From an uncultured Chloroflexia bacterium (GTDB lineage Bacteria > Chloroflexota > Anaerolineae > Anaerolineales > Anaerolineaceae), in NCBI GenBank assembly GCA_963704755.1, contig OY969938.1, positions 3,660,001-3,692,000 of the forward strand: a stretch of 32,000 nucleotides of DNA, given 5' to 3'. The notes under the pieces are model-generated. The model ran no database searches. It saw nothing but the letters and a program-made list of their open reading frames with translations, and was not told the origin of the DNA. The first letter of the stretch is position 1, and the number at the start of each line of letters is the position of its first letter. Positions 6,418 through 29,563 of the stretch are shown here, piece by piece. The position numbers and the translations under genes were made by a program.

Positions 6418-7440
6418 TTATCCTTTCAGGAGGTGAAACGCGACTGCCGAATCGGTTGCCAACATATTGACGATACGCGCTGAAATTGCCGTCTTAATCG
6501 CTTCCACTTTTGGAAGACCGGTGGCTACGCCAATGACGATGGGAATTTTGCGCAAGTTTTCCAGTTCGATACAGACCAGGCGATGGTCGATCTCGACGTT
6601 GACCATTTCTTCGCCATTCTTCCCGAAAAACCTTCCGGCAACATCGCCTAAAACACCCTGCTTTGATAGCTCCAACAACTCTTCCCGCGTGAGTGACTTG
6701 TTCCGCACCAGGCTGTTTACTTTGGGATCCATGGCGCCGATACCCACCAAAGCAATGTCGGCGTGTTTCGCCCGTTCCAAAACGGCCCGGATGCTGGGTT
6801 CCTTGAGCAGAATTTGAGTGGAAATAGGATTTTCTAAAATCAAGGGCGCGTGGAGAAAGTGAAGGGTTCCCGAGTAACGGCCGCGCAGAAACATGGCGAT
6901 ATCCGAGCCGTCATTCAACAGGTCGCCCATCGCTCCTTGAATTTGAACGACATCCACTTTCAATTCAGGCTTTGCCTGTAAAGCCTCGACGGCAGAATAA
7001 ACACCGCTGCCACGAGAAATGGCCAGAGTATTTCCGTACTCCAAATATTTCTCGACCAGCCGGGCGCCCATAACGCCGACCCCTTTGCGAATTTCTGTCT
7101 CGGTTAACCCATCTGCATTGAGGACCATCGCGTCCTGCAGGCCATAGGCCTTCATCAGCTCGGATTCTAGCTGGGGACTGTTTCGCCAGGGATAATTGAC
7201 CTTTACTTCCACCAGCTTGGTCTGGCGGGCTTCGGTAAGCAATCGCGAAACCATCGGTTTCGACAACTGCAAGGTTTGAGCGATCTCAGCCTGGGTAATG
7301 TCTTCTTCATAATACATGCGTGCAATCTTGACCATCAAGTTCAGCTTTTCTTCTGCATCCCGGACGATATCGATTTGAATACCGGAATTCATTGCAGAAG
7401 ACCCAAAGGATTCATTTTGCTCTTTTTCGACTTTACGCAT
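6418..7440 (-). CDS. SorC/DeoR-type sugar-binding transcriptional regulator
   Basis: 340 aa. The N-terminal HTH is ARMYYEEDITQAEIAQTLQLSKPMVSRLL, followed by a SorC-type sugar-phosphate-binding domain (ISRGSGV, ALVGIG, GDVAGRFF). Confidence 0.85.
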   Translation of the reverse strand: MRKVEKEQNESFGSSAMNSGIQIDIVRDAEEKLNLMVKIARMYYEEDITQAEIAQTLQLSKPMVSRLLTEARQTKLVEVKVNYPWRNSPQLESELMKAYGLQDAMVLNADGLTETEIRKGVGVMGARLVEKYLEYGNTLAISRGSGVYSAVEALQAKPELKVDVVQIQGAMGDLLNDGSDIAMFLRGRYSGTLHFLHAPLILENPISTQILLKEPSIRAVLERAKHADIALVGIGAMDPKVNSLVRNKSLTREELLELSKQGVLGDVAGRFFGKNGEEMVNVEIDHRLVCIELENLRKIPIVIGVATGLPKVEAIKTAISARIVNMLATDSAVAFHLLKG

Positions 7441-7456
7441 ATACTTACCTCAGGCC

Positions 7457-7496
7457 TAGAATAAAATGTGATCCTAACTTGAAATATTTTATTCTA
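7457..7496. promoter_or_regulatory. 11 bp perfect inverted repeat tagaataaaat / attttattcta (18 bp spacer) just upstream of the sorC-like gene
   Basis: The arms at 7457-7467 and 7486-7496 are exact reverse complements. The repeat lies 17-56 bp upstream of the regulator start codon (7440, minus). It is a candidate operator or promoter element. Confidence 0.4.
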
Positions 7497-7497
7497 T

Positions 7498-7531
7498 CCT
7501 AGATAGGGAATCTCTCCATTCCCTATCTAGG
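7498..7531. repeat. perfect 14 bp-stem palindrome (cctagatagggaat ctctcc attccctatctagg) between IIC and the regulator gene
   Basis: The arms at 7498-7511 and 7518-7531 are exact reverse complements. No T-run follows on either strand, so this is not a canonical intrinsic terminator. Confidence 0.6.
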
Positions 7532-7595
7532 AATTACTGCTTGACCCAAAACCTGCCCGCTGTTTCAGCGGAATTGGGCCACCTGAACCAGAAAA

Positions 7596-9018
7596 CTAGA
7601 TGGTTTCACCTTCGTAGACTGCGCCCGCAACCTTGCTCCAGGACTTGCGGCGCTTGTTGAGGCCAAGAAAAGCCCAAACCAGCAGAGCTACGACGACGAT
7701 CAACACAATTGCTTCGGTAAAAACGCCGCCTATGGTCGAGGGGAAAATCAAGGCGGCGGCGGAAGTAACCCAACCATCGCCCATGTTCGTGATCATCGAT
7801 GCGCCTTCCGGGATGGTGACGCCGGCCATGGGGGCGGCCAGGGTCTGAATTGGAGCCATCCAAGATGCCATGTACAATCCAACGGCTGCGCAGATCGTAC
7901 CGATGATGGTCATTCTGACCACATTACCCTTGGTAATCGGGGCAAACATACAAACGAAGAACGGGATTGCGGCCAAATCGGCAAAAGGCAGCATCCGGTT
8001 ACCAGGGAGGATGATGGACAACAAGATGGTAATGGGGACAAGCAGCAGGCTCGTGGCGATCACGGAAGGATGGCCGATCAGGATAGCAGCATCCAGGCCA
8101 ATGTGAATGTCCCTTCCGCCGGCCCGTTTGGCCATGAATTCATGGGCAGACTCGGACAGCGGAATCAAGCCTTCCATCAAGATCTGAACCATCCGAGGCA
8201 GGAGCAGCATAACTGCGGCCAGGTTGATACCGCTGGTCAGCACCGAAATGATCGCTGTGGTCCAGTTGGTATCTGCGGATGGCGGGAAATAAGCAATGGC
8301 GCCTAAGATGAGGCCAATTACAAGGCCCAAAATGAGGGGCTCACCGAATACACCCCATTTCTTCTGGATGGACTCTGGGGTCGGCTTTCCAATCGCGCAC
8401 GCCCGGGATACGGTCCAGCAGCCAGTTGAGTGGAATGGCCAGCGGTGCAAAAGATTGAGCGGAAGCCGTGGTAATGCTCACCCCCGGCATTCCAAAGAAA
8501 TCTTGTACCCCCTTCTGAGTCCAGTCTGCAATGAACAAGGCAAAAATACTGGCCACTGCAGCTGCACAAAGACCCAACACCAGGTTGTTCGTGACGACAA
8601 ACACCATCGTTCCCACAAAGGCAAAGTGCCAGAAGTTCCAGACATCGATATTCAATGTTCTGGTCAAGCCGAGGAAAAGGAATAGCAAGTTAACAATGAG
8701 AACGACTGGGATGATGAATGTGCCAACCTTTGACCCGAATGCGATCGCTGCTGCGGTAGGCCAGCCGACATCAACTGCGGTGAGTTGGACGCCGGTCTTC
8801 GTGACGATTGCTTGAGAAACGCCGCTTAGAGCTGTCCACATCAAACCAATGACCAGGTTGATGCCGACAAATGCGACCCCAATGGTGATCGCAGCTCGAA
8901 AGGCTTTCCCTGGCTTGGAACCAAGAATCAGCGCCAGGATGAAAATGACAATAGGGAGCATAACGGAAGCACCCATTGCACTGATGATAGACTGAAGCGA
9001 AGTAAAAAATGCAGCCAT
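7596..9018 (-). pseudogene. gatC: PTS galactitol-family EIIC component, interrupted by a +1 frameshift (or a sequencing error)
   Basis: Two overlapping ORFs (8341..9039 and 7596..8450, different frames) are together colinear with a GatC-type IIC of about 470 aa. Frame a reads ...LLDRIPGV then RDWKADP...stop. Frame b reads AIGKPTPESIQKKWGVFGEPLILGLVIGLILG, the conserved continuation. The junction implies one extra base in cccgggcgtgcgcg (plus 8394-8407). The likely start is ATG 9018 (MAAFFTSLQ), preceded by a purine-rich SD. Confidence 0.8.
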
Positions 9019-9131
9019 CTTTTCCTTTTCCCTTTTCAATTGTAATGCGAGATTCTTTTTGCCAATTACTTTCTACAAGCAGATTTATGAATAATGGATG
9101 TTTACCTCCTTTCGGTTTGGGCGACATTCTT

Positions 9132-10180: not shown

Positions 10181-11134
10181 TTACTCCCTGGCCACCTTGG
10201 CCGACACCAGATCCTCATAAAAGGCTTGATACGCACTTCGTTCCTCTTCGCTCTTGAAGCGAACATAATGGAGGAAGGGCCGGCGCGCTTCAAGGAGAGG
10301 CAATCCTTTGCAAGGATTTGTATAAGCCAGCACAACGACGGGCTTTTCTTTACCCATTTGCTCTACCGGGGCCACCAAAGCATCGAGATCGTGCCCGTTT
10401 ACTTCCACTGCAATTGCTCCAAAAGCGTCAAGCCTTTTCTGCAAGGGCTCGACGTTCATCACGATGGACGTGGGACCATCACATTGCTGCCCATTAATGT
10501 CGATGTACACGCAGACGTTCCCTAATTTGTAATAAGCCAGGGCGGCGACGGCCTCCCAGACCTGGCCTTCTTCCATCTCGCCATCCGTCATAAAAACAAA
10601 CACCCTTCCGGGCTCCCCTTTGAGCTTGCGCGCGTGCGCAACCCCGCCGGCCACGCTGATTGCCTGGGCTAAGGAACCCGCCATGACCTCGAAACCGGGC
10701 GAATGGTCTGCCCCGATCATTTCCAGGGTGCTGCCATCCTTGTTGAACTCGGATAATCCGCCGACGTCCATTCTGCCCGCCTCAATCAGGGCTGCGTATT
10801 CTACTAGCGCATAATGGCCCGGCGAAACAAAAAAGCGATCATACTGTGGGGCGATTGGACCGTTATAGTCTGCCCCACGGATTGGGTGGGGGTTGTTCGG
10901 GCCAGGCACCGTATTGAAAGAAGGTGGAATCATAGGAGCTTGACTGGGACCTAATTTCAGTACTTTTGTGTAAAGCGCAGCAAAAATTTCTGCTGAGGAG
11001 CAGGCCTGGCTAAGATAGCCCCCATTATTTTTCAAAATATGCTCCAGCACCCGTGATCGAATGCCGTCAGCAACCTTTTGAGCCTGTTCCTGCCAATCCT
11101 GCTTTTCAAGAACGACTGCTTCATTCATGATCAA
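10181..11134 (-). CDS. transketolase, N-terminal (thiamine-diphosphate-binding) subunit
   Basis: 317 aa. Motifs seen: GGYLSQACSSAEIFAALY, SPGHYALVEY, and the TPP motif MTDGEMEEGQVWEA. Confidence 0.9.
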   Translation of the reverse strand: MIMNEAVVLEKQDWQEQAQKVADGIRSRVLEHILKNNGGYLSQACSSAEIFAALYTKVLKLGPSQAPMIPPSFNTVPGPNNPHPIRGADYNGPIAPQYDRFFVSPGHYALVEYAALIEAGRMDVGGLSEFNKDGSTLEMIGADHSPGFEVMAGSLAQAISVAGGVAHARKLKGEPGRVFVFMTDGEMEEGQVWEAVAALAYYKLGNVCVYIDINGQQCDGPTSIVMNVEPLQKRLDAFGAIAVEVNGHDLDALVAPVEQMGKEKPVVVLAYTNPCKGLPLLEARRPFLHYVRFKSEEERSAYQAFYEDLVSAKVARE

Positions 11135-11488
11135 AGTAATCTCCCGAAATATTTACTTGAAATTTATTTCATGTTATGAAAATTATTTCATTGGATAGGT
11201 CAATTATAGGAGGATCTACGGTTTGAAAAAAATGACATTCCTCATATTAAAGTTCGCTGTTTGTCATATTGAGGCGAATCGGGTAATTTTCGCCACATCC
11301 TGCGGCCTTGCCTCTAACCAAAACGGCACAATTGGGCCAGGGATGCCCGGTCAAATAATCTCTGACACCATGGACCTTCTCGGATCGATTGGGATCCTGC
11401 TGAGGTTCGGCCGGAAACATCTATTTGGAATGTATCCATAGGCTTGAAAAAAGAAGCAGCGTTCTTCGAATAGGTTCATCGATAATTA

Positions 11489-11929
11489 ATGGCCGATTTT
11501 ATCGGCGCGTACACCTGGGAAGAAATTTGTCGCGAATGGACCATCCGGGCAAGCAATCGTGGAATCCTGGCCCTCTATCCTGACCGTGTGGAAAGTGATT
11601 GGGGAAAAGATTACCAGGTGGATGTCGTCGGTATCAATACGATGAAAAGACACCTGATCTTAGGTGAGTGCAAATGGATCAAAGAACGTGGAAAGGCAAC
11701 TATTTTATAGGAGCTGGTTGAGAAAAAAACGCCCAAAGTTGTTCCGCCTTCCGGGAACTGGCAGGTATACTTCCTGGGGTTCTCGCGTGGTGGCTGGAAC
11801 GAAAATGCCGTTGAATATGCGCGGAATCTCTCTCAAGCGCATCCGGCGGGTATAAATTGGCAAATGCAAGGAATCCGGTTACTCACGCCGGAGGACATAG
11901 ATACAGATTTGCGTGAATGGGCAAATTGA
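11489..11929 (+). pseudogene. 5'-truncated, amber-interrupted copy of the C-terminal (DUF234-like) part of the ATPase gene at 30482..31967
   Basis: It aligns codon for codon with 31524..31967, with about 85 percent nt identity over the first 100 nt by hand count. The first 73 aa differ at 7 positions. An in-frame TAG at 11708-11710 replaces the CAG of the full copy. The frame otherwise stays open to TGA 11927-11929. Homology stops abruptly upstream of 11489. Confidence 0.8.
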
Positions 11930-14201: not shown

Positions 14202-14801
14202 CTACTGACCTGGTTTCCATTGGCTCAATGGGGTGAGCTGGATCTGCTTTGAAAGATCATAAACGGTCGCTATGTCGCTGTCGCTTGCCACGAGGGCCCT
14301 TACGATAAGCAGCACAGAGTTATTCGGAGAGGAAACCTGCTTCATTCCGCCTGGCGCCTCTCCTTTCCAACCACGCCCCGCAATGAGATAGTCGCCCGCT
14401 TGCGTCCCTGTGGTGCGCGTGCCGACGTAGGCAAAATTCGTATTGTATGACGGGTTCGTGAACTGCACGCTGTAATAGCGATCGTTCATGTCGGGTACGC
14501 GCAAGACCAGCGGCTCTTTCCTGAGGTCTAACCAACCCAAGGTCAGGAGCGTATCGTGGTTCACGCCGGCTGTCGCCGAGTTCGAGCCGGTTTGCATTGT
14601 GATGGGCTCTGCAAAGAGTTTTTGGGGCTGGGTGTAAAGCGTATTGATCGGAATGGGGCCGTCGCCGAAGCCTTTAACAAGGATCGCCCGCTTGAACACG
14701 GACAGAAGCATGCGCGGCCAAAAGTAGATCACAAGGCACCATGCGACGACCATGACCACAGCGATAATTAGCAAATGCTGGTAGTATGGCATATCGATCA
14801 C
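14202..14801 (-). CDS. DUF1254-like domain protein with an N-terminal TM anchor (copy 1)
   Basis: 199 aa. After an N-terminal hydrophobic helix it reads GDGPIPINTLY...NHDTLLTLGWLDLRKEPLVLRVPDMNDRYYSVQF...GTRTTGTQAGDYLIAGRGWKG, the DUF1254 pattern as I remember it. A 4 nt ATGA overlap links it to the upstream gene. Confidence 0.75.
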   Translation of the reverse strand: MIDMPYYQHLLIIAVVMVVAWCLVIYFWPRMLLSVFKRAILVKGFGDGPIPINTLYTQPQKLFAEPITMQTGSNSATAGVNHDTLLTLGWLDLRKEPLVLRVPDMNDRYYSVQFTNPSYNTNFAYVGTRTTGTQAGDYLIAGRGWKGEAPGGMKQVSSPNNSVLLIVRALVASDSDIATVYDLSKQIQLTPLSQWKPGQ

Positions 14802-15460
14802 TTCCTTTCGTCGACCGGCGGCACCGTGTATTTGCCCTGGAGAATTTCTTCGCCGGGGATGTACACGCGCAGCCAGAGGATGAAGTTGTCCGCAGGCGCG
14901 GGCAGCCAGTTGGACTCGTGTCCCGCCGGGGCATCCTTCTGAATGTAAATATCGACAGAATCATCGGGGTTTTGCGCAAGGCCGGAACGATCGCTGACGC
15001 TGTAGCGGTTGATCGGATTCGCCACAAAGTGATTTCTCGCGTCTCCCATCGTAATCGACCAGAATGCATGGTTCGGCGGGAGCCCTCCTGCTGGAAAGTG
15101 CATGACGTAATCATGTGCTCCGGAGAGCGCATGGCCCGCGCCATCGCTGTTCGTCCACCAATACTGCGCCTCTTCTGATGTGTTCACCGGGCCGAGAAAT
15201 AGCTGGGCGTGCGCGGCACGCAGGAACATGCCGTTGCCGGGCTCACCCAACCCGTACAGGGTGATCCAGCCGTTGACCTTTTTGGCTTTGATCCGGGCGT
15301 AGATTTGGGCCGAGACGAACGCCAGCCCGAAGCCGATGAGCGCACCCTGGATCAGGTCACTGCTCAAAGTTCTTGGACGGGGGAAGAAGATTACACGGGT
15401 GAGGAAATAGACGCATACCGCGCCAATGAGTATCGTCAGGTAATTGTATGTTTTGCTCAT
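14798..15460 (-). CDS. DUF1214-like domain protein with an N-terminal TM anchor (copy 1)
   Basis: The start is placed at MSKTYNYLTILIG (15460), which forms an ATGA overlap with the upstream membrane-protein gene. The C-terminal NWLPAPADNFILWLRVYIPGEEILQGKYTVPPV is the characteristic DUF1214 end motif. Confidence 0.75.
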   Translation of the reverse strand: MSKTYNYLTILIGAVCVYFLTRVIFFPRPRTLSSDLIQGALIGFGLAFVSAQIYARIKAKKVNGWITLYGLGEPGNGMFLRAAHAQLFLGPVNTSEEAQYWWTNSDGAGHALSGAHDYVMHFPAGGLPPNHAFWSITMGDARNHFVANPINRYSVSDRSGLAQNPDDSVDIYIQKDAPAGHESNWLPAPADNFILWLRVYIPGEEILQGKYTVPPVDERK

Positions 15461-16203
15461 ATTGAAACCTTTTCTTGAGCGGGGATTCCTTTCAGGGGCA
15501 GGAACAGGGTGATCGCAACGACGAAGCAGAGCACCTTGGAGATCGCATTCAAGGCAATCGGGATGGGTGTACCTGGATAGGCGAAACCAAATCCGGCCCA
15601 AATGGCGAACACGAAGAACATGCCGGCCAGGGAGAACAGGGTAGATCTCGACAATTTCACCAATGGCGAGAGGGTAAGCAGGGAGAAGGTTGAAATTACG
15701 ATCAGAAATAACGGCAGGAAATAGAGCCCTCTGAACGGGGTCGCAGGTAATGGCGTGTAAACCTTTCCTACGACGATCAGATCAAAGGGGAGCTCGAATA
15801 TCCATGGTGCGGCCATCGTACCCAGGATGGCGTTGCCCAGCGCAATTTTCCAGCCGTACCGTCTGCAGATGACGAGGAGGATAATGAAGGTCACGACCAC
15901 CGCAGTGAACGTAACCGGCGCGATCCGGTCGGGGGGCAGAACGAACTTTCCCACTTGCCCGCTCGCCCTCTGTAGTTGGAATACGAGCCCATAAATGCGA
16001 GTCGCGTTAGCCGCTGTCACAATCGAGAGGATCCACAGCGCAAACAAGAAAAAGGTGACCGTCTTTCCAGGCCGGGCGGCTGTTAGCGGACGGCGCATGC
16101 GGGTGCCCACAATAATGAGCGCACCCGCGATGATCACCAGGATGATGGCCAGGACAACCGCTCCGCTGCCCGTATAGGGGCTCCAACTGCTATTGTAGAT
16201 CAT
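15457..16203 (-). CDS. polytopic integral membrane protein, unknown family (248 aa)
   Basis: It has about 6-7 hydrophobic segments. It is translationally coupled to the downstream DUF1214 gene. A TATAAT (plus 16248-16253) lies about 45 bp upstream. Confidence 0.6.
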   Translation of the reverse strand: MIYNSSWSPYTGSGAVVLAIILVIIAGALIIVGTRMRRPLTAARPGKTVTFFLFALWILSIVTAANATRIYGLVFQLQRASGQVGKFVLPPDRIAPVTFTAVVVTFIILLVICRRYGWKIALGNAILGTMAAPWIFELPFDLIVVGKVYTPLPATPFRGLYFLPLFLIVISTFSLLTLSPLVKLSRSTLFSLAGMFFVFAIWAGFGFAYPGTPIPIALNAISKVLCFVVAITLFLPLKGIPAQEKVSI

Positions 16204-16365: not shown

Positions 16366-16992
16366 CTACTGCCCGGGTGTCCATTGGGTCAACGGTGTGA
16401 GCTGGATTTGATTTGCAAGGGCATAGGCTGCCGGCGCGTCACTGTCGCTCTCGACAAGTGTGCGCCCGATCACGAGAACGGCATTGCCCGGCGAGGATAT
16501 CTGCGTGACTCCCGCCGGTACCGTTCCTTGCCATCCCGGACCGGTGATGAGGTAATCGCCAGCGTTTGTACCGGTGGCGCGTGTGCCGACTTCCGAGAAC
16601 ACGATACCCCTCGTTGGACTACAAAACTCAACGCTGTAATAACGCCCCGTTATATCCGGTACATGTAAAATTAAAGGTCCTTTGGAGAGATCGAGCCAGC
16701 CAACGGTGTAGAGCGTGTCGTGGTTCGCGCCGGTGGTCAGAAGATTGGACCCCGAAGCGGCATAGGGTGAAATGAAATTTTTGGCGGTCACTGTATAGAG
16801 CGTGTTGATGGGGATCGGCCCGTCTCCGAGGCCATTCTTGGTTATTCCCGTATAATACAAGCCGTACATCGAGATCGGGAAGACATAGAGGTAGAGGGGA
16901 ACAACGATAACCCACGCCACGAACATGGCCAGGCCGAAGGTGCGCAGGTAGTGTGTCTTTTTGGGTGCGTTCTTTTCCATAGAAGACCTCAT
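16366..16992 (-). CDS. DUF1254-like domain protein with an N-terminal TM anchor (copy 2)
   Basis: It is a paralog of 14202..14801: GDGPIPINTLY, NHDTLYTVGWLDLSKGPLILHVPDITGRYYSVEF, GTRATGTNAGDYLITGPGWQG, and an identical IQLTPL.QW.PGQ C-terminus. Confidence 0.75.
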   Translation of the reverse strand: MRSSMEKNAPKKTHYLRTFGLAMFVAWVIVVPLYLYVFPISMYGLYYTGITKNGLGDGPIPINTLYTVTAKNFISPYAASGSNLLTTGANHDTLYTVGWLDLSKGPLILHVPDITGRYYSVEFCSPTRGIVFSEVGTRATGTNAGDYLITGPGWQGTVPAGVTQISSPGNAVLVIGRTLVESDSDAPAAYALANQIQLTPLTQWTPGQ

Positions 16993-19930: not shown

Positions 19931-20017
19931 ACCCGGCAATTTTCACCTTCAATTATTGCCTGCGCCGCGCGTGTACCTGGAGGTGGGACACCCTATCCGT
20001 TCCCGGTGTTTCTAATT

Positions 20018-21355
20018 TTACATCGCAGGGCTTTTGGGGAGAGGAATGACGATGTTCAAAGTAAACAATCCCCCATCCGCCATGACACTCATTTCGCCAT
20101 GGTATTTCTGGATTGCCATCTCGATACTTTGTAATCCATAGCCATGGTTCTGGCTGTCTGTTTTTGTGCTGAGGAACTTGAGCTGCTTTTTGATCAGACT
20201 ATGCGTGAAACGGTTCTCGAACCGTGCCATCAGCATGTCGTTCACCCGGCCTGTGCGCACCTCGATCCAGCGCAGTGAGGGTTCGTCGTTGCGATCACTA
20301 TTCTCGATAGCGTTGTCCAGGGCATTTCCAAAGATGGTCGCGATATCGACGTCTTGGATCATAGACCAGTGCTTACCATCTGCAACGATGTGCATCTCAA
20401 TGTCCTTGTCTTCCGCCTCGTGCATCTTTTCCGACAAGATAATGTCCAATGTCTTGTTTCCCGTATTACAGATCAACTCATAGTCTTTGATCTCGTTATC
20501 GATGGTCTTGACATAAGTCTTGATCTCAGCCAATGAATTGATGGATACGATCCCGCGCAGGATATGGCGGAGGTCGTGATATTTACGGTTGACCGTTTCG
20601 ATAGTATTGAGTGTGCTCAGATATTGAAGGTGCTGCCTGCGGACCGAATTTTCCACTTTTAGCAGCTCGTTCTGCCTGATGCTATAGCTGAGGTGCTCGC
20701 TCATGATCATATTGGTCAACGCAAAAACGCCAAAAAGGAAGTCGAGATAATGGATCATCAACGGGACGGTGAAAGGGTCGATCCTGAATATGAACGCGTA
20801 GTCGCGCAAAAAGAAATAGGGACCCGCGGGCAGCATAATAATGAGCGCCAGGTTTACATTTGTGATCCCATTGATTTGGAAACGAATGAACTTCTTGATC
20901 GAAACTGTTACACCGATTTTCATGACCAGCAGAACGATGTGTGCGATCACCCTCTCTAAAAAAGTTCCTTTGTCGATGAAGTCAAAATGAAAAAACGACG
21001 ACATCAACGAGATTAACAGGACCAGACAAATGTCGTTCGCCAGGACGGCCAGGATGGTGAGATAAATCCGTGCGCCCAGGGGTGAGTTGCTGCATTTTGC
21101 CGAGAACACCAGCAGCAATAGGAAATGGATCGCATAAAAAATGAGGAAGTTGGCCTGCTCAACGGTCCTTCCATTGAAGACGAGTTGCGAAGAAACCATG
21201 ATCAGAAAAATGGCTGCGAACCATATCCCCCAGGATCGATTCTTACGTACTTGCTTACGGCTCCCGTTGCACAGATAGAGTAGCAGCAGCATGTCAGATA
21301 ACGACATGAATATAGGAGCAAAACCGGTTTCGATGATCTGAGAGAGGCCGTTCAT
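20018..21355 (-). CDS. AgrC-like (HPK10/GHKL) membrane sensor histidine kinase
   Basis: 445 aa. It has about 6-7 N-terminal TM helices, the H-box KYHDLRHILRGI, the N-box FGNALDNAIEN and the G-box HGYGLQSIEMAIQKYHG. A 4 nt overlap links it to the LytTR regulator gene. Confidence 0.85.
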   Translation of the reverse strand: MNGLSQIIETGFAPIFMSLSDMLLLLYLCNGSRKQVRKNRSWGIWFAAIFLIMVSSQLVFNGRTVEQANFLIFYAIHFLLLLVFSAKCSNSPLGARIYLTILAVLANDICLVLLISLMSSFFHFDFIDKGTFLERVIAHIVLLVMKIGVTVSIKKFIRFQINGITNVNLALIIMLPAGPYFFLRDYAFIFRIDPFTVPLMIHYLDFLFGVFALTNMIMSEHLSYSIRQNELLKVENSVRRQHLQYLSTLNTIETVNRKYHDLRHILRGIVSINSLAEIKTYVKTIDNEIKDYELICNTGNKTLDIILSEKMHEAEDKDIEMHIVADGKHWSMIQDVDIATIFGNALDNAIENSDRNDEPSLRWIEVRTGRVNDMLMARFENRFTHSLIKKQLKFLSTKTDSQNHGYGLQSIEMAIQKYHGEMSVMADGGLFTLNIVIPLPKSPAM

Positions 21356-22053
21356 AATTGCCCGCCGATCAAATCTGTTAGACTGCTGATGAGGTCTTTT
21401 CGTCTGTGTTTGCTGATGGGGACCTTCATCCCTGCGATGATGCAGTATTGCCCTTGTAAAGACTCTACTGCGTATAGATTAATCAAAAAAGCGCTATGGC
21501 AGCGAAAAAATGTCTTGGGTAAATGCTCCTCCAGGTATTGCAGCGTCTTTGCGCAGGCAACCTGGCCGTTTTTCGTTTCAATAAATAGTTTACGGTTTTT
21601 GACTTCAATAAAATAAATGTCGGAAAGGTTGAGGACAAAATAACCCTCATTATTATGCACGGTTAAAAATTCACGATCGGCATTGCCAAGCCTGCGGAAG
21701 GCGCGGGCCATGACGCGCTCAAGCATTTGGGAAGATACCGGTTTAATTAAATAATCCAGCGCCTCAACTGAATACCCCATCAATGAATGTTGTGGATTGT
21801 TGGTGATAAAGATGATTTCCACCCGGTCGTTGGACTCGCGGATCTTCTTCGCGACTTCAATGCCATTCAGCCCCGCCATCTGGATATCCAGGAAGATGAT
21901 GTCGAAGTTCGACGGCCAATTGGCCAGGATATCTTCTCCGCTGCTGTACGAGAGGATCTCCAGTTTAATATTCGGAAGAAGGGACCATTCCCTTAGCTTT
22001 TCTTCCAAGGCCTTACTGTCGATTGAATTATCTTCAACGATAGCAATTTTCAT
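21352..22053 (-). CDS. LytR/AlgR (LytTR) family response regulator
   Basis: The receiver domain shows MKIAIVEDN and IIFLDIQMAGLNG. The C-terminal LytTR domain shows IYFIEVKNRKLFIET...FFRCHSAFLINL. Confidence 0.9.
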   Translation of the reverse strand: MKIAIVEDNSIDSKALEEKLREWSLLPNIKLEILSYSSGEDILANWPSNFDIIFLDIQMAGLNGIEVAKKIRESNDRVEIIFITNNPQHSLMGYSVEALDYLIKPVSSQMLERVMARAFRRLGNADREFLTVHNNEGYFVLNLSDIYFIEVKNRKLFIETKNGQVACAKTLQYLEEHLPKTFFRCHSAFLINLYAVESLQGQYCIIAGMKVPISKHRRKDLISSLTDLIGGQL

Positions 22054-22841
22054 TGTTTACCTGCTTGAGGCCTAATTTTAGAGGGGGCTTTTTGATGCAA
22101 GCCATTTTAACATATTTACCCCGCTAATTGGGCGTTCGGCATGTCTAACGGGGTCACTGCCCAGAACAATGTTGCTTACAATTTGAGTAGAATTTAGGTA
22201 TCGTGTAACCCCCCAAAAGATTGCCTATCGAAAACAAAAATCTCTCTGCGCGAGTTAATCCGGCGGCATTCGCTTCCGGCCAGTCTGGCGCTGACGACCG
22301 GCAGTGCTATCTGCAAGCACCGAAAAGAGAAATTTCTTTTGTGGAGGATTATGGCGCCGATTTATACAGTCGAAAAAGGAAAAGCATTTATAACAAAAAA
22401 CCTACTCCCGAGACGAATACAGCCAATCCGCACAGAATTTTTATCCAGGCCTGGTCAAAATTGGAATACTTAAAAAAACGGGTGCAACTGACCAATATTT
22501 AGTCACACAATTTGATCTTCCAATATAGTAAAGAATTGAAGGGATTGGGCCCTGGAATCCTGGTGATCAATCATTTTTAATACTGCACGCTGCCATTGGG
22601 TTGATGGCCTCCGTGCAGATAAAGGAGGTAAAGCTCAGTTCTGTCTCGTGGAGAACCTGCGACGGATACAACACATAAACCCGTTCATTCAAAATCGATA
22701 ATTCGTTTCGAAGGGTATTTGAGCCAATTCAAGTCCAGGTTGAAGCGCTTTGTTGGGTGACAAAGGTGTCTTTTTTTCACTCTGATCATAGATCGAGTCG
22801 ATGTTGTTAGTAAAAATAAAAAGTAAAGAGGAGAGGTAACC

Positions 22842-25085
22842 ATGGATTTGTCGGAAGATTTAAAAAGAATAAGTCGAAGATACTTCTTGAAAGGGACCGC
22901 ACTTACCCTTGCCGCAGGTGGAATGCTCACGGCCTGTAAGCCGAAAATAGCGGCCACCGATGCAGTTGTTGAACCCGCTGCCGGTTCACAAACGTCTGCA
23001 GTTGCAACCGAACTGATCCCGCAGGCCTATCTCAATCCGCAGAATTACGACTACCGTCAAAATACTACCGACTTCAAAACGCTGTTTTCGCCTCTGAAGA
23101 TCGGCCCGCTCAACCTCAACCATCGCATGGTCAAATCCGCAGCCGGATCGGCCACTTATCTCGCTGGGCTTACCGATGAGCTGCTCCAATACTACGTTAA
23201 CTTCGCCAAGGGCGGCGTTGAGCTTATTTGGGTAGAAATGGTTGAAGAGCTGGAGCCGCCGGCCGACGGCAGTGAAACACCTGCCAAAACCATTGCCTTT
23301 GCTCAGAAACTCGTTGAGGAGTGTGGAAAATACGGCGCAAAGTTAGGCTATCAGCACTATGGCTTTTCAATGAAGTCATCGAACGACTTTACGCACGAGG
23401 ACATTGCTGCGGAACAAGCCCGCTGGGTGGCCATTGCTCAGTTCTTGCAGAAAACCGGCTTTGTTGGGATTGAGCTCAACGCCGCAGGTTTTAACCTCGG
23501 TGAGCAATTCCTTTCGCGTTTCCACAACACCCGTACGGATGAATACGGCACAGGCAGCCTGGAAAACCGCGCCCGTTTTGTGACCGAATTAATAGACCAG
23601 ATCAAAGCAGCCTGCGGTAAGGACTTTGTAGTACAAGTTTTGATCGACTGCATAGAAGAAAACGACAACCTTACCAATGGCGCCTCCTTGGCGACATTAG
23701 ACAACGCTGTTACTACTCCGTTTAGTAAAGTAACGACGATCGAAGAAGGAATTGGGTTTGCCAAGTTGTTCGAAGCTGCCGGATGCGATTCGATGCATCT
23801 GCGCTTAGGTCCGCTAGACAACCACCCGTGTCAATTTGGCAGCGACCTTTACTTTCTCTTGAACGGTATTGAGGGTGCAAGCGGATACGGAACCCAATGG
23901 GATTTCTCGAGGCATTGGCAAGGCCAGCTGATCGGCAACCACAGCGGCGCCGGTATGCTGCTCGACATTGTCGCGCGCTACAAAGCAGCGCTCAGCATTC
24001 CTTGCGGCACCGTCACCTATATGGATCCAGCCCATGCCCCAGATTACTTCGAGCAGGCGCTCGCCGATGGCAAAGTCGACTTCTTTCTCATGAACCGCCC
24101 GTTAAATGTTGACACCGAATACGTCACTAAACTTAAAGCGGGACGTATCGACGAAATCGCCCCCTGCACGCGCTGCTTCCACTGCCACATCGGCGGAAAC
24201 GAGCAGAACCGCCAGATGGGTTATTGCCGCGTGAACGCCTTGACACAGCGGGTCATGACCGAAAATGGACCGGCGACCTATGAGCTTGAACCGGCTACCG
24301 TGTCGAAGAAAGTCATGGTGATCGGCGGCGGTCCTGCCGGTATGGAAGCCGCCCGCATCGCAGCCGCCCGCGGTCACAAAGTCACACTCTATGAAAAGAG
24401 TGGTGCGCTCGGTGGCAAGCTCGCCTTTGCTAGCATGGTCAAAGGACCTCACGAAAACCTCGACGACTTTAAGGCTTATCTGGCCAGGCAACTGGAGGTG
24501 AACGGCGTGACCGTCACCTTGGGTAAAGAAGTCGACGCCGCGCTGATCAACAGTGAATCCCCAGATGCGGTAATCCTCGCAGTCGGTGCTCTGCCGGGCA
24601 AGGTGGACGCAAGTGGCGGCAACGTGCCGGTTATCGACTTTACCAACTTTATGGCTGACGGAACTGGCGACAAAGTCGTTGTCTTTGGCTCAAACGCCCA
24701 GGCTTTCGACTGCGCTCTGTGGCTGACGGTGCATAAGAAGAAGGTCACCATTGTAACGCCGAACCCCATAGAGGATCTCGACAAGCAGCAGTCTCAGCAC
24801 GCTCAACGTTTTATGACGACCTCACTCTATTCACTTGGATTAAAAGTTTATCCAAGCGCTACCATCAAGGAGATTGGCGACGGCAAGGTTACCGTAGCAT
24901 CTGACGGCGGATGGGAGACCGTCATCGCCGCAGACTCCATCATCAACGCCGCCGACCTGGTGCCGAACAAGTCCCTGCTTGACGGCATTTCGGTCAAAGA
25001 GACCTATGCAATTGGTGACTGCGATCAGCCCTTTAACATGGCTTTGGCTATCCGTGCCGGCAACGATATCGGCCGTCAAATCTAG
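22842..25085 (+). CDS. Tat-exported lipoprotein, OYE / 2-enoate reductase / 2,4-dienoyl-CoA reductase-like flavoprotein (FMN TIM barrel + 4Fe-4S + FAD domain)
   Basis: A strong SD (aagaggagagg) precedes it. The twin-arginine motif is SRRYFLKG, followed by the lipobox LTAC. The OYE-like barrel shows ENRARFVTELI. The Cys cluster is CTRCFHCHIGGNEQNRQMGYC. The dinucleotide fold is VMVIGGGPAGMEAARIAAARGHKVTLYEK. Confidence 0.85.
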   Translation: MDLSEDLKRISRRYFLKGTALTLAAGGMLTACKPKIAATDAVVEPAAGSQTSAVATELIPQAYLNPQNYDYRQNTTDFKTLFSPLKIGPLNLNHRMVKSAAGSATYLAGLTDELLQYYVNFAKGGVELIWVEMVEELEPPADGSETPAKTIAFAQKLVEECGKYGAKLGYQHYGFSMKSSNDFTHEDIAAEQARWVAIAQFLQKTGFVGIELNAAGFNLGEQFLSRFHNTRTDEYGTGSLENRARFVTELIDQIKAACGKDFVVQVLIDCIEENDNLTNGASLATLDNAVTTPFSKVTTIEEGIGFAKLFEAAGCDSMHLRLGPLDNHPCQFGSDLYFLLNGIEGASGYGTQWDFSRHWQGQLIGNHSGAGMLLDIVARYKAALSIPCGTVTYMDPAHAPDYFEQALADGKVDFFLMNRPLNVDTEYVTKLKAGRIDEIAPCTRCFHCHIGGNEQNRQMGYCRVNALTQRVMTENGPATYELEPATVSKKVMVIGGGPAGMEAARIAAARGHKVTLYEKSGALGGKLAFASMVKGPHENLDDFKAYLARQLEVNGVTVTLGKEVDAALINSESPDAVILAVGALPGKVDASGGNVPVIDFTNFMADGTGDKVVVFGSNAQAFDCALWLTVHKKKVTIVTPNPIEDLDKQQSQHAQRFMTTSLYSLGLKVYPSATIKEIGDGKVTVASDGGWETVIAADSIINAADLVPNKSLLDGISVKETYAIGDCDQPFNMALAIRAGNDIGRQI

Positions 25086-25180
25086 AACACGAGCGACAAT
25101 GTAGCTTACGGTCTATTGTCAACAATTTTTGTTCTCGATCTGCGTTGTCCTTAGCCAGAATCAAGAGAAAGTAAGGGAAT

Positions 25181-25220
25181 CAAAAACCGCCAGGCATGTC
25201 CTTTTTTAGGAGCCTGGCGG
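25181..25220. terminator. bidirectional intrinsic terminator
   Basis: The hairpin is ccgccaggc ... gcctggcgg (25187-25220). The minus strand follows it with TTTTT (plus aaaaa, 25182-25186). The plus strand follows it with tttgcttt. It can end both the reductase transcript and the tRNA remnant. Confidence 0.7.
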
Positions 25221-25229
25221 TTTGCTTTA

Positions 25230-25266: not shown

Positions 25267-25899
25267 ATGATGGATACACTTCAGCAAGCGATGGAACAAG
25301 GCCGGCGCATCCTGATTTCAGTCGGCACCCGCACCGGCAAAACCACGCTTCTCAGCGCTCTATGCAATTTCCTGCCGCCAGCCTGGCGCATCGTGAAGAT
25401 TGAAGACCCGGAGGAAATTTGGGGCTACCGCCCGACCGTACAAACCGTGGAAGCCCGCCCGCAAGCGGTGGGCACAGAAGTGAAACCCTATACCCTGGCT
25501 GATGGGGTGGATGACGCTATGCGCATGTCCCCCGATTACCTGGTCATCGGCGAAGTGCGCGACGGAATGGCAGCCATGAGCTTGTTTCGAGCCTTGATGA
25601 CCGGTCACAGTGGGGCCTGCACCTTCCATGCAGCCAGCCCGCGTGAAGCCGCCCGCCGGCTGGCGACCGTGATGGGGGCAGATGCAGGGGTGAAGCCGCA
25701 TGAAGCCAATCAGATGATTGCTGATGCCGTGGATGTGTTGGTTCAAATTGGCATCCGTCATGAAGTTCGCCGGGTGGTGGCTATATCGAATGTGGCTGAG
25801 GATTTGAAAAACGGGGATGTGTTTTTCGAATCGATTTATTGGTATTTAGAAGAGTCAACAACCCTTGAACCATGTTGGGAGAAGGTTGGAGAACTTTGA
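25267..25899 (+). pseudogene. 5'-truncated VirB11/CpaF/TadA-family secretion or conjugation ATPase
   Basis: The 210 aa ORF begins only about 20 aa before the Walker A motif (GTRTGKTT). It then shows Walker B DYLVIGEVRD and the His box TGHSGACTFHAAS. The N-terminal domain of about 100-200 aa found in this family is missing. Confidence 0.7.
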
Positions 25900-26832: not shown

Positions 26833-28998
26833 CTATGTTTCTCGGCTTAAGGATTTCACTCGTTGGAGCAGATCCAAAACCTCTTGAGGCGGCTCTTCTA
26901 CTCGTTCTTTTACCGGATAGCTCATCATCTGTATCGTGAGACTGGTGCCATCCTCCAATTGGCTCACCGTTTGCACCATACGGATCAGTCCGCTTTTCTG
27001 GTCGATCCAGGTCTTGAGTTCAGACTGCACTACCGGTTGCGATATTCCAGTCGTTACAAGGGGCGGATCGTATCTGGATGCTAACGTAACTAACAGGCAA
27101 GGTTGACCATCCAAAATGGTTTCCTCACGGATGACGTCGCTGGCATAGTTGGGCCTGAGGATAAGGTCGGGTAAATTCTCTACCCGGGCTTTTGTTTCGA
27201 GTTGAGTGTCTTCCATGGCTGTACCTGTGGTGAAATTGACCTGGGTTGTTCCCACCCGTGCACTTTGTTGCCAGATGTCACCTTCGGGCGTTTTCTCGAT
27301 CCATACTTCCTTACTGATCGTCCCGTCCTGTTCTACATACTGCCAGGTCTCGCCAATGGAATGCGATGGCCCCAACAACCTGCCGCTTTGGTAATTTTCT
27401 GTGTCTTCCGGCTCGATGGTTTCATAGACAACATGGACCCAACCGGGCTGGCCATATAACGTCTGGAAGCCCCTTTCTAATAGCGTGCGTACTTCTTCAG
27501 CGATTGTCTCCCTGGGCGATAAGGTAGCCAGTCCCGTTAGGGTAGGCTGCGGATCAATATTTTCCGTAGAGGTCATAGATGGTGTGGCAGTGACGGTGGT
27601 TACAGGCTGTTGGATGTTCTCTGGTAAAGCCAACGGCTGCCAATCCACTTCCCACGGCCCCTCGATTGAATAGGATAAGCCTCCCAACTCAACCGGAATT
27701 GGGTTCGCCGGCAGATTGTTTAACTCAAGGACCGGATGAAGCATCGCGCCGGATTTATTACCGGGGGCACCGGTGGTCGATTGGTAGCAGATGGGTTGCG
27801 AACAGCGGAACATCACATCTTGCACGCTCTCATCCGGACGTTCAACGTCAAAGGTCAAACGGAAATAACCATCCTCGCCTTTCTGAAGGGTTGCGCCAAC
27901 GACCCGAACGTGAAATGCTCCACTTTCCAATGTTTGATCCAGTTTCCAATGCTGGCCAATGGCCGGCGCAGGACCAAGATCGAGCAAGAATGAGGGCGCC
28001 GATCCGTCCAGTGGCGGTTCATCCACCAACAGCAGGCGCGCTAGCTTCATCTTGAATTCCTGCCCTTCGTTTAAAGACCGCGTTTGGAAAATCGCAGATC
28101 TTCCGCCGATGCCTTCGACGAAGTTCACCGGATAAATCGCATCTTTGTCGTCTTTGAGGGAGAGTTGTGAATACCAGTCAGGAGAAAGGGTGCCATTTAA
28201 GGTGGGTGTATCGAAACGGATGGTTAAGTACGTCCCGTCCGCATCTTGTACAGCTTGCAGCAGGTTCATTGCCACCCCATTTACCGTTGAACTGCTCCAC
28301 GTCCTGGCCCAGGCATCCGGCAATAGATCCTGCGGCTCGACCGGGCGTAACTGAAGTCGAAATTCCCAGTTCTCAGGTGCTTCGCCTTTCAAAGTTTGGG
28401 GAAGTTGCGGTAACAAGAGAACTGCTTCGTCTGTATTCTCTGGAAGAGCAGAAAATTGATATTCGGCATAAAGGGCGTCCCCCACGTAAAAATCACTCGT
28501 GTTCGCCATTAATGGCTGTTGATTTCCGGGGTCAAGTTGTGGCCAGGCAGGCTGGAGTTCCGGGTAGCTAATAAAATCTGACGACTTACGCCACCCTTCC
28601 ACTTTGATCCTCAGCCACGTGCGCTCTCTGGAGGCTACCAGGTTTTCGACCGTAACGGTATAACCATCCCGTTCCACCTGAATAGGCTCTGATAGGACAA
28701 CTACCTCATCCACATTTTTGACGATGCCGACACCCGGTAAATAGCTGAACAAAGATTGAACAGCTGCTAGAACCCTCTGAGGGCCGACCGCAAGAAGAAC
28801 AAAAAGAATCACGAACGCCGTAACACCAGCAATCAACCACGCCGGCCGGAGCACCGGCCAAAGCGGGGTTTTCGGTTCGCTCAATGGCTGTTCTTCCAGT
28901 TGTTTCCATAAGGAGTTGACGAATTCAGGCCGTGCCTGGGGCATAGCCACGGCTCCCTTGATCTTATCTTCAAAATCAATGAGATTAGCCTTCTGCAT
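26833..28998 (-). CDS. putative anti-sigma factor: single-pass membrane protein with a large (about 640 aa) extracytoplasmic domain
   Basis: It overlaps the ECF sigma gene by 14 nt. A cytoplasmic N-terminus of about 50 aa is followed by one TM helix ([18 protein letters not shown]) and a long domain with no recognised motif. No HxxxCxxC zinc motif is present. Confidence 0.55.
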
Positions 28999-29563
28999 TT
29001 TTTACCTCCAACTGATTTTGGAGCCTGCCCAAAAGCCTGGAATGCGCTTTTCGAACGGTATCCTCTCGTTTACCCAAGGTGCTGCCAATTTCGGCAAAGT
29101 TGAGCCCGGCGATGTAACGCAGCCGAATGATTTCTTGCTCTTCTTCAGTAAGGGCCCGAATGAGGTTCCCTAAACGGTTCAACTCATCCGTATGGATGAC
29201 TTGGGCTAGAAGATCAATTTGATCCGGTTTTTGATAGACCTTTTCCAGGGGTATCTCTCGTGAGTTTCTGCGAAAGTGATCGCGGACTATATTTCGAGCA
29301 ATAGTAAACATCCATGCTGAAAAGTAACCTTTATGGTGATATCGGGGAAGCTCTTCAAATACTTTGAGGAATACTTTCGAGGTAAGGTCTTCAGCGTCGG
29401 CAACGTTGCGGACTTTAAAGAATATGTATTGATACATCGGTTGAACCCAGCGGACGTACAGTTTCTTACACTGGGTCCGATCTCGTTGCGCAGCCAAGAC
29501 CAGATCTACTTCCTCATCAACATAGCCAGGATCTGCCAGTATTGTCATGGTCGGTCCACTCAT
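28985..29563 (-). CDS. ECF-type sigma-70 family RNA polymerase sigma factor
   Basis: Region 2 shows [15 protein letters not shown]...[19 protein letters not shown]. Region 4 shows [41 protein letters not shown]. Confidence 0.9.

Follow-up and report, generated by a model that had tools for sequence, protein, structure and literature searches.

Iron-sulfur (Fe-S) flavoenzymes, among them FadH, the enoate reductases, BaiCD/BaiH, BilR and daidzein reductase (DZNR), are described in a 2024 review as NAD(P)H-dependent two-domain enzymes; the same review gives most members as being of unknown function and mentions no exported form. The surveys of exported respiratory reductases consulted here cover fumarate-reductase-like and molybdopterin enzymes only, and a survey of flavinylation likewise holds no exported member of the old yellow enzyme (OYE)/FadH type. 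Here we describe a gene for a predicted exported enzyme of this kind, at positions 22842-25085 (+ strand, 747 aa) of a 32,000-nucleotide stretch of DNA from an uncultured Chloroflexia bacterium (assembly GCA_963704755.1, contig OY969938.1, positions 3,660,001 to 3,692,000), the whole of which we call the window. Its product is best read as a member of a distinct exported clade of the FadH/2-enoate reductase/2-naphthoyl-CoA reductase class, one that appears to have lost its NAD(P)H site, and we favor, with some reserve, a function as an inducible reductase outside the cytoplasm, supplied with electrons by the membrane electron-transport chain. The scaffold is familiar and so is the role of exported inducible reductase; the combination is undescribed so far, and the active site is altered.

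The nearest known systems fall into several groups. 2-Naphthoyl-CoA reductase (NCR), a type III aryl-CoA reductase, has no NADPH site, this being blocked by W459 (F424 in FadH), and NAD(P)H is not its donor; a ferredoxin-like partner gives single electrons at the surface FAD, which pass via the cluster to the FMN, and Y197 protonates the substrate (PMC6502838). Trimethylamine dehydrogenase (TMADH) and the histamine dehydrogenases also work with external one-electron partners and not with NAD(P)H, and they bind ADP in place of FAD (PMC6502838). The combination of an exported reductase, a local sensor/regulator and a shared electron chain is documented for substrate-induced respiratory reductases (PF00890 and PF00384) from Eggerthella, Holdemania and Sutterella, in a study that defined its respiratory reductases through these two families alone (bioRxiv 10.1101/2022.12.26.521950). 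FMN_bind domains are an established extracytoplasmic electron-transfer module (PMC8238504, PMC11334425).

The start codon of our open reading frame (ORF) agrees with the N-termini of homologues (MDLSEDLKRISRRYFLKG versus MDSSEDGKKISRRYFLKG), and a GAGGAG ribosome-binding site lies upstream. Barrel, four-Cys linker and FAD domain follow one another on a single polypeptide, which is the architecture of Fe-S flavoenzymes. The OYE-type FMN TIM barrel (approximately residues 78-435; 23073-24146, +) scores 85.3 bits with PF00724 (Oxidored_FMN; cutoff 27) and aligns to YqjM, OYE1, FadH and NCR; its Q171 and R243 are conserved in the family alignment, which consists of the query and its best 120 homologues (121 sequences, 115 of them complete at the N-terminus). 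Next comes the [4Fe-4S] ligand motif C442-x2-C445-x2-C448-x13-C462 (24165-24227, +), with all four Cys invariant (121/121); it aligns to the cluster linker of FadH and NCR, the spacing being x2/x2/x13 here versus x2/x3/x11 there. In the FAD domain (Pyr_redox_2, 68 bits), the FAD-binding beta-alpha-beta unit (G495GGPAG, E518) and the K534-G-P-H-E-N539 segment at the flavin face (24306-24458, +) are invariant, G495-G-G-P-x-G500 being found in 121/121. From these binding motifs, FMN, FAD and a [4Fe-4S] cluster are probably the cofactors. An initial annotation, made from the letters of the window, had already read an OYE-type barrel followed by a GGGPAG FAD fold, as Pfam and the alignments also do; its four-Cys cluster stands as well, with the last spacing corrected from x12 to x13. 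Membership in the BaiCD, BilR or mycofactocin OYE_2 families was rejected, the best NCBIfam scores (211-281 bits) falling far under the cutoffs of 750-825. PF00890 (FAD_binding_2) matches only residues 491-531, the start of the Rossmann fold, and not with its catalytic domain.

Residues 1-32 (22842-22937, +) form a predicted twin-arginine translocation (Tat) signal peptide with a lipobox: S11-R-R-Y-F-L-K17, in which the arginine pair is 12-13, is followed by an uncharged h-region and by L29-T-A-C32. Each of the 115 homologues with a complete N-terminus has R12, R13, F15 and the lipobox Cys32. The NCBIfam model TIGR01409 gives the query N-terminus 22.0 bits (cutoff 16.7) and is passed by nine of the ten family N-termini tested; Pfam TAT_signal, run on the full protein, stays under threshold (13.8 versus 22.7 bits). 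Behind Cys32 lies a low-complexity stretch (residues 33-56; 22938-23009, +), unconserved in length and sequence and modeled with a predicted local distance difference test score (pLDDT) below 50, and after it the conserved mature start ELIPQAYLNPQ. That the segment between Cys32 and this start is free to vary in length and composition is consistent with a role as tether. In Dehalobacter sp. DCM two tatA/E genes lie directly downstream of the homologue, and in an Oceanispirochaeta metagenome-assembled genome (MAG; locus L018) the homologue stands between a DDE transposase directly upstream and tatC some 600 bp downstream (6876-7853 and 10839-11612). The Oceanispirochaeta arrangement suggests that the reductase moves together with Tat components.

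Export and lipid anchoring are supported because the Tat motif and the lipobox Cys do not vary among homologues from four phyla and because tat genes adjoin the gene in two unrelated lineages. We predict that the protein is very probably exported via Tat, and the best reading of the lipobox is that it is lipidated on Cys32 and held at the outer face of the cytoplasmic membrane. The SRRYFLKG and LTAC motifs read in the initial annotation are confirmed, and the extracytoplasmic, membrane-tethered location proposed there is supported; homologues with the same Tat signal, for which it had suggested a search, exist (115 of 115). It is highly improbable that the protein is a common enoate or dienoyl-CoA reductase of the cytoplasm, dependent on NAD(P)H, with a signal peptide that is an artefact of annotation or chance. 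Such an enzyme would suit the sub-threshold full-protein TAT_signal score and the names under which homologues, cultured ones included, are filed in the databases, which are generic only (e.g. '2,4-dienoyl-CoA reductase-like NADH-dependent reductase'). It is contradicted by the comparative data: the arginine pair, F15 and lipobox Cys in 115/115 homologues, joined to variable tethers; the TIGR01409 score over cutoff; the adjacent Tat genes in two lineages; the invariant absence of the NAD(P)H motif (below); and the closest cytoplasmic relatives tested (640-701 aa), which have no N-terminal extension and form a separate group.

The second dinucleotide site, where FadH and the enoate reductases have an intact GxGxxG, is degenerate and reads V612-V-V-F-G-S-N-A-Q-A-F-D623 (24675-24710, +). 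Its G616-S-N-A-Q-A-F-D623 portion is invariant (121/121), so the GxGxxG expected for NAD(P)H is lacking throughout the family; in a Bulleidia MAG the string is G-S-N-L-Q-A-F-D, and the motifs persist in homologues at 57-66% identity. All members of the wider exported clade have [GN]-x-Q-A-x-D here, whereas cytoplasmic relatives have G-x-G-x-x-G or G-G-x-x-x-G. Residues were mapped onto NCR by sequence alignment to 6qkg, with the numbering verified by Y197 and W459. NCR W459 falls on N539, within the invariant K-G-P-H-E-N, and F424 of DCR, the FadH-type 2,4-dienoyl-CoA reductase, aligns to N539 too, these two residues governing the NADPH site; the donor-docking hollow proposed for NCR is lined by N540 and D569, which correspond to N618 and D647; Q545, which points at FAD N5, corresponds to D623; and the proton donor Y197 corresponds to N218. 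NAD(P)H use appears to have been lost, since the site would lie outside the cell, the [GN]-x-Q-A-x-D motif is clade-wide, and the closest structure, NCR, is proven to be NAD(P)H-independent. In all likelihood, then, the enzyme does not depend on NAD(P)H, as had been proposed from the loss of GxGxxG in this one sequence. It would share this independence with NCR while having neither the catalytic Tyr nor the Trp of that enzyme.

The active site is non-canonical. In HMMER alignments the query's IELNAAGFNL lies opposite IEIHGAHGYL in canonical OYEs, VEVMGSEGYL in FadH and VEVCAIVGYL in NCR, so that within the string E211-L-N213-A-A-G216-F-N218 (23472-23495, +) N213, G216 and N218 occupy the positions of the canonical His, His and Tyr. 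The string E211-x-N-A-A-G-F-N218 is invariant (121/121) and is kept as N-S-A-G-F-N at 57% identity in the Bulleidia MAG. The substrate-anchoring H-x-x-H/N pair of the OYE family is therefore replaced by N213 and G216, and the Tyr proton donor (OYE1 Y196, FadH Y166, NCR Y197) is replaced family-wide by N218. The initial annotation had noted that both His and the Tyr are replaced, and the alignments to OYE, FadH and NCR show that these residues are not merely offset; the replacement is less exceptional than it had seemed, the His pair being absent in FadH and NCR too. Exported relatives and 695-aa cytoplasmic ones commonly have Asn in place of the first His, and many of these relatives have His at the Tyr position (e.g. 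L-N-A-G-C-N-H-L). Only the core family has the G-F-N combination. Judged by sequence, what sets the protein apart from its nearest relatives is the Tyr-to-Asn change and the G-F-N string alone.

By sequence, the nearest solved structures are those of NCR (6qkg, E = 1.3e-50) and FadH (1ps9, E = 2.7e-38), followed by TMADH and histamine dehydrogenase. An AlphaFold (AF2) model built from 43 close homologues reached a pLDDT of 67.5 and a predicted template-modeling score (pTM) of 0.61, and serves for fold assignment only. Searched with Foldseek, it again put NCR first (E = 1e-39, TM 0.72), then FadH, TMADH, histamine dehydrogenase and HisD. The likeness to NCR comprises the FMN barrel, the [4Fe-4S] linker, the FAD domain and one further alpha/beta domain; as in the type III class, NCR being the top structural match, there is no functional NAD(P)H site. 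In the fold alignment, however, identity to NCR is only 24-25%, and NCR works in the cytoplasm on a CoA thioester and has Y197 and W459, where our protein has N218 and N539 and an export signal. We would not expect CoA esters outside the cell. FadH (1ps9), the clostridial 2-enoate reductases, BaiCD, BaiH, BilR and DZNR share the three domains, the four-Cys cluster and the FAD GxGxxG, but they work in the cytoplasm, depend on NAD(P)H and have their second GxGxxG intact, and FadH retains Y166 at the position of N218. The exported reductases of PF00890 that Eggerthella, Holdemania and Shewanella use on urocanate, cinnamate and itaconate resemble our enzyme in having a signal peptide and an extracytoplasmic location, with optional FMN_bind fusions, and in that each gene stands alone, next to a two-component system or to a transmembrane helix-turn-helix regulator; exported members of their family also occur in the genome neighborhoods of homologues of our reductase. 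Their scaffold is unrelated, ours being an OYE barrel with an FMN, [4Fe-4S] and FAD relay. No characterized close homologue, a possibility for which the initial annotation had left room, was found in the literature, in curated families or in database annotations.

The relationship to TMADH and the histamine dehydrogenases (2tmd, 3k30, 6de6) raises the question of whether the protein is an extracytoplasmic dehydrogenase of the TMADH type, which we consider unlikely. These enzymes and HisD have the same three-domain fold and take ranks 5-9 in the fold search; as predicted for our protein, they are NAD(P)H-independent, handing electrons to an external protein partner, and the lack of the proton-donating Tyr fits oxidation as well as it fits reduction. 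They oxidize amines, and they bind ADP where the query keeps an intact FAD motif. TMADH-type enzymes carry 6-S-cysteinyl FMN, attached in TMADH through Cys30, which we take to lie in beta1. The beta1 segment HRMVKSAAGSA has no Cys, nor do residues 92-105 in any family member, the invariant Cys being 161, 258, 270, 388, 442, 445, 448, 462 and 727, so this flavin linkage is impossible there. Moreover, the reductases NCR and FadH are clearly closer, and the gene neighborhoods resemble reductase islands (below).

A search of 5.8 billion proteins returned 2619 relatives, of which the best 120 are mostly full-length and 67-96% identical to the query. Carriers belong to four phyla, Chloroflexota, Actinomycetota, Bacillota and one spirochaete. 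They include Anaerolineae (a Bellilinea MAG has a homologue at 86% identity), Coriobacteriia such as Slackia exigua ATCC 700122 and a Gordonibacter MAG, rumen MAGs of Oscillospiraceae and Ruminococcaceae, Bulleidia, Desulfitobacterium, Dehalobacter, Bacillus tuaregi and the Oceanispirochaeta MAG, and their habitats include gut, rumen, termite, oral and digester. Identities of 62-86% across four phyla imply strong constraint and horizontal spread of the family. Among the carriers, S. exigua ATCC 700122, Desulfitobacterium sp. THU1, Dehalobacter sp. DCM and B. tuaregi are in culture.

In a wider search, against 1.84 billion representatives at 50% identity, the core family collapses to two representatives. 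Around it lies a ring of full-length relatives at 38-48% identity that ranks ahead of the cytoplasmic enzymes and nearly all of whose members have the arginine pair and a lipobox. The exported clade alone has an insertion of about 20 residues between beta6 and beta7, T-[GS]-[FY]-G-[TS]-Q-x-D-[FY]...H...G, and M-D-P-x-x-A-P at beta7 is also common to the exported ring. A neighbor-joining tree puts the cytoplasmic sequences into one group with the signal-bearing ones outside it; this tree is rough and not decisive on monophyly. Some exported relatives at about 40% identity are fused to FMN_bind, at the N-terminus in P0136 (residues 66-137, 25 bits, motif DGVTGAT) and at the C-terminus in P0135 (residues 836-901, 39 bits, motif DAVSGAT), and the opposite placement makes the fusions look independent. 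P0138 and P0140 have similar N-terminal segments that receive no Pfam score at E <= 0.001. The D-x-x-[ST]-G-A-[ST] motif, which is the flavinylation motif of ApbE substrates, occurs in P0135, P0136 and P0138. By analogy, these fusions favor the earlier proposal that electrons come from a carrier other than NAD(P)H.

The conservation within this clade bears also on how specific the enzyme may be. It could be a broad-specificity surface electron outlet, passing electrons to quinones or humics, free flavins or metals such as chromate and not to one C=C substrate. OYE-family chromate and quinone reductases are among the PDB matches, Desulfitobacterium and Dehalobacter are among the carriers, no dedicated partner or pathway genes are linked to the gene, and the loss of the His pair and Tyr would matter less for outer-sphere acceptors. 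Yet hardly any variation between phyla is seen in the active-site string or in the large beta6-beta7 insertion, which argues for a defined pocket, and a dedicated sensor/regulator adjoins the gene in many hosts, suggesting a specific inducer. We rate such an outlet as slightly more doubtful than the TMADH-type dehydrogenase.

The gene lies in a three-gene cassette of 5.29 kb (19937-25225), composed of a kinase, a LytTR regulator, an intergenic region and the reductase. This interval is the only DNA in common with a sibling contig (L006), at 86-92% identity, both flanks being unrelated; the reductases of the two are 96% identical. Kinase, regulator and reductase therefore form a discrete unit, in agreement with the 5.3 kb cassette with a LytTR two-component system that had been recognized at the outset. 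The LytTR-family response regulator (21352-22053, -; Pfam Response_reg and LytTR) is divergent from the reductase, and next to it is a GHKL sensor histidine kinase (20018-21355, -; Pfam HATPase_c_5) with a hydrophobic N-terminal half that, read from its translation, is probably multi-transmembrane. Regulator and reductase are also together in L006, where the kinase is co-conserved, and in the distant L029, a Faecalibacterium-like MAG in which a 66%-identical homologue stands beside a LytTR regulator and a shorter GHKL kinase ORF.

The divergent regulatory region or leader (22054-22841, 788 bp) is about 82% identical to that of L006 outside an insertion of about 170 nt, which in the L006 leader lies further upstream of a stem-loop, CTGCACG...CGTGCAG (22583-22618), kept in both. 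AAGGAGG follows the stem-loop, the two together spanning 22583-22628. A small ORF after these elements was rejected, as its candidate GTG is not conserved in L006. An Rfam scan of the 788-bp leader for riboswitches or known RNAs gave no match at E <= 1, LytTR-type direct repeats were not detected in the intergenic region with a 7-nt seed, and promoter matches there were no more numerous than in shuffled sequence.

Regulators of other kinds accompany the homologues elsewhere. At four actinobacterial loci, including that of the Gordonibacter MAG, a multi-transmembrane protein with a LuxR-type C-terminus is encoded 230-290 bp from the homologue; Desulfitobacterium has MerR, Dehalobacter a 7TM-GGDEF protein and Bulleidia a PucR-type regulator as neighbor. 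The Bellilinea and B. tuaregi loci show no obvious partner gene beside the homologue. When the two closest genes on either side of the homologue were tallied at 34 loci (118 proteins), the commonest domains were GerE/LuxR (9), FAD_binding_2 (5) and Response_reg (4), with LysR, MerR and ArsR at two each. Among five FAD_binding_2 neighbors picked out by clustering, three carry Tat signals and two FMN_bind domains. Cytochromes, quinol dehydrogenases, NapH-like proteins and ApbE were absent from the 25 most frequent families among these flanking genes; the recurrent neighbors are sensors or regulators and exported fumarate-reductase-like flavoproteins, where the initial annotation had cytochromes and quinol dehydrogenases in mind. 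Nor is there a linked electron donor in five individually annotated contexts, or anything redox-related among the annotated genes of the window, the remaining ones being PTS (phosphotransferase system), alcohol dehydrogenase, transketolase, ABC-transporter and sigma factor genes with no redox chain. A signal peptide and an adjacent sensor/regulator with no dedicated donor genes are what respiratory-like reductases display.

One such neighborhood is that of Desulfitobacterium sp. THU1, where the homologue begins 68 bp after the gene of a 715-aa lipoprotein (L003 7786-9933) that has two FMN_bind stretches and a FAD_binding_2 domain; MerR lies upstream. The homologue and this exported reductase may be co-transcribed.

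We can envision the enzyme working as follows. The holoenzyme, with FMN, one [4Fe-4S] cluster and FAD, would be assembled in the cytoplasm, exported by Tat and anchored via Cys32 through some 25 residues of tether. From the membrane chain, single electrons would enter at the solvent-exposed FAD domain in the manner of NCR, brought perhaps by a protein (menaquinol-linked, flavinylated or of another kind) whose gene lies elsewhere in the genome; they would then cross the cluster and accumulate on the buried FMN, from which hydride transfer would reduce an extracytoplasmic organic acceptor. The proton would come from a residue other than the canonical Tyr (here Asn218), candidates being the invariant H319, H328, Y337, H367, Y393 and H398 in clade-specific loops. 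The adjacent membrane sensor kinase and LytTR regulator would switch on expression upon sensing the substrate or a related outside signal, and the role might be that of a respiratory-type or detoxifying terminal reductase. Of this scheme, we infer the direction of electron flow, the donor, the FMN hydride chemistry and the substrate-dependent induction, and for catalysis itself we lean toward the reductive direction.

Several observations weigh against an inducible reductase of this type. (i) Classical ene-reductase chemistry cannot be taken for granted, given that neither the canonical proton donor nor the pair anchoring the substrate is there. (ii) The fold relatives include TMADH and histamine dehydrogenase, which run in the opposite direction. 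(iii) The structural model is only moderate; loops 274-294 and 324-369 have a pLDDT below 50 though they are highly conserved, and active-site geometry cannot be taken from it. (iv) With no linked donor gene, the electron source is conjecture. (v) Systems of an AgrC-like kinase with a LytTR regulator often sense peptides and not metabolites.

Exported or Tat-dependent enzymes of the OYE/FadH type have no description that we could find in the full-text literature, with work in subscription journals possibly lying beyond it. Tentatively, and with more doubt than belief, the core family and its FMN_bind-fused relatives might be regarded as a third superfamily of extracytoplasmic respiratory reductases beside the fumarate-reductase and molybdopterin types. 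Were this so, the enzymes would use NCR-like one-electron entry at the FAD to form an extracellular FMN hydride, compounds of plant, host or pollutant origin beyond the reach of the other two classes could be reduced, and the catalytic apparatus, N213, G216 and N218 with a clade-specific loop, would be unlike that of any characterized OYE. With the FadH/NCR fold placed outside the membrane in so large and closely conserved a clade, spread horizontally, anaerobic respiration and the metabolism of xenobiotic or dietary compounds would gain a new catalytic scaffold. For biocatalysis, an NAD(P)H-independent enzyme of the ene-reductase type might run on an electrode or a mediator. The cultured carriers make substrate, donor and direction directly testable.

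We finally note some peculiarities elsewhere in the window. (i) A 210-aa ORF at 25267-25899 (+) begins 42 bp past the cassette boundary at 25225. Of the 370 positions in the T2SSE secretion-ATPase profile it matches only 132-275, and it has the look of a truncated remnant; the boundary may be an old insertion or rearrangement point. (ii) A 721-aa ORF at 26833-28998 (-) has no Pfam match and lies directly downstream of, and overlapping, a sigma factor gene of the extracytoplasmic function (ECF) type (28985-29563, -). In its translation one hydrophobic segment can be read near residues 55-75, and the product may be an anti-sigma or surface protein. (iii) Two ORFs at 7596-8450 and 8341-9039 (-) overlap, the first matching only the C-terminal half of the PTS EIIC-GAT profile (207-393 of 394); together they may be a frameshifted or split permease gene. 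(iv) A DUF1214 ORF (14798-15601, -) and a DUF1254 ORF (16366-16992, -) belong to a minus-strand run beside ABC-2 transporter genes.

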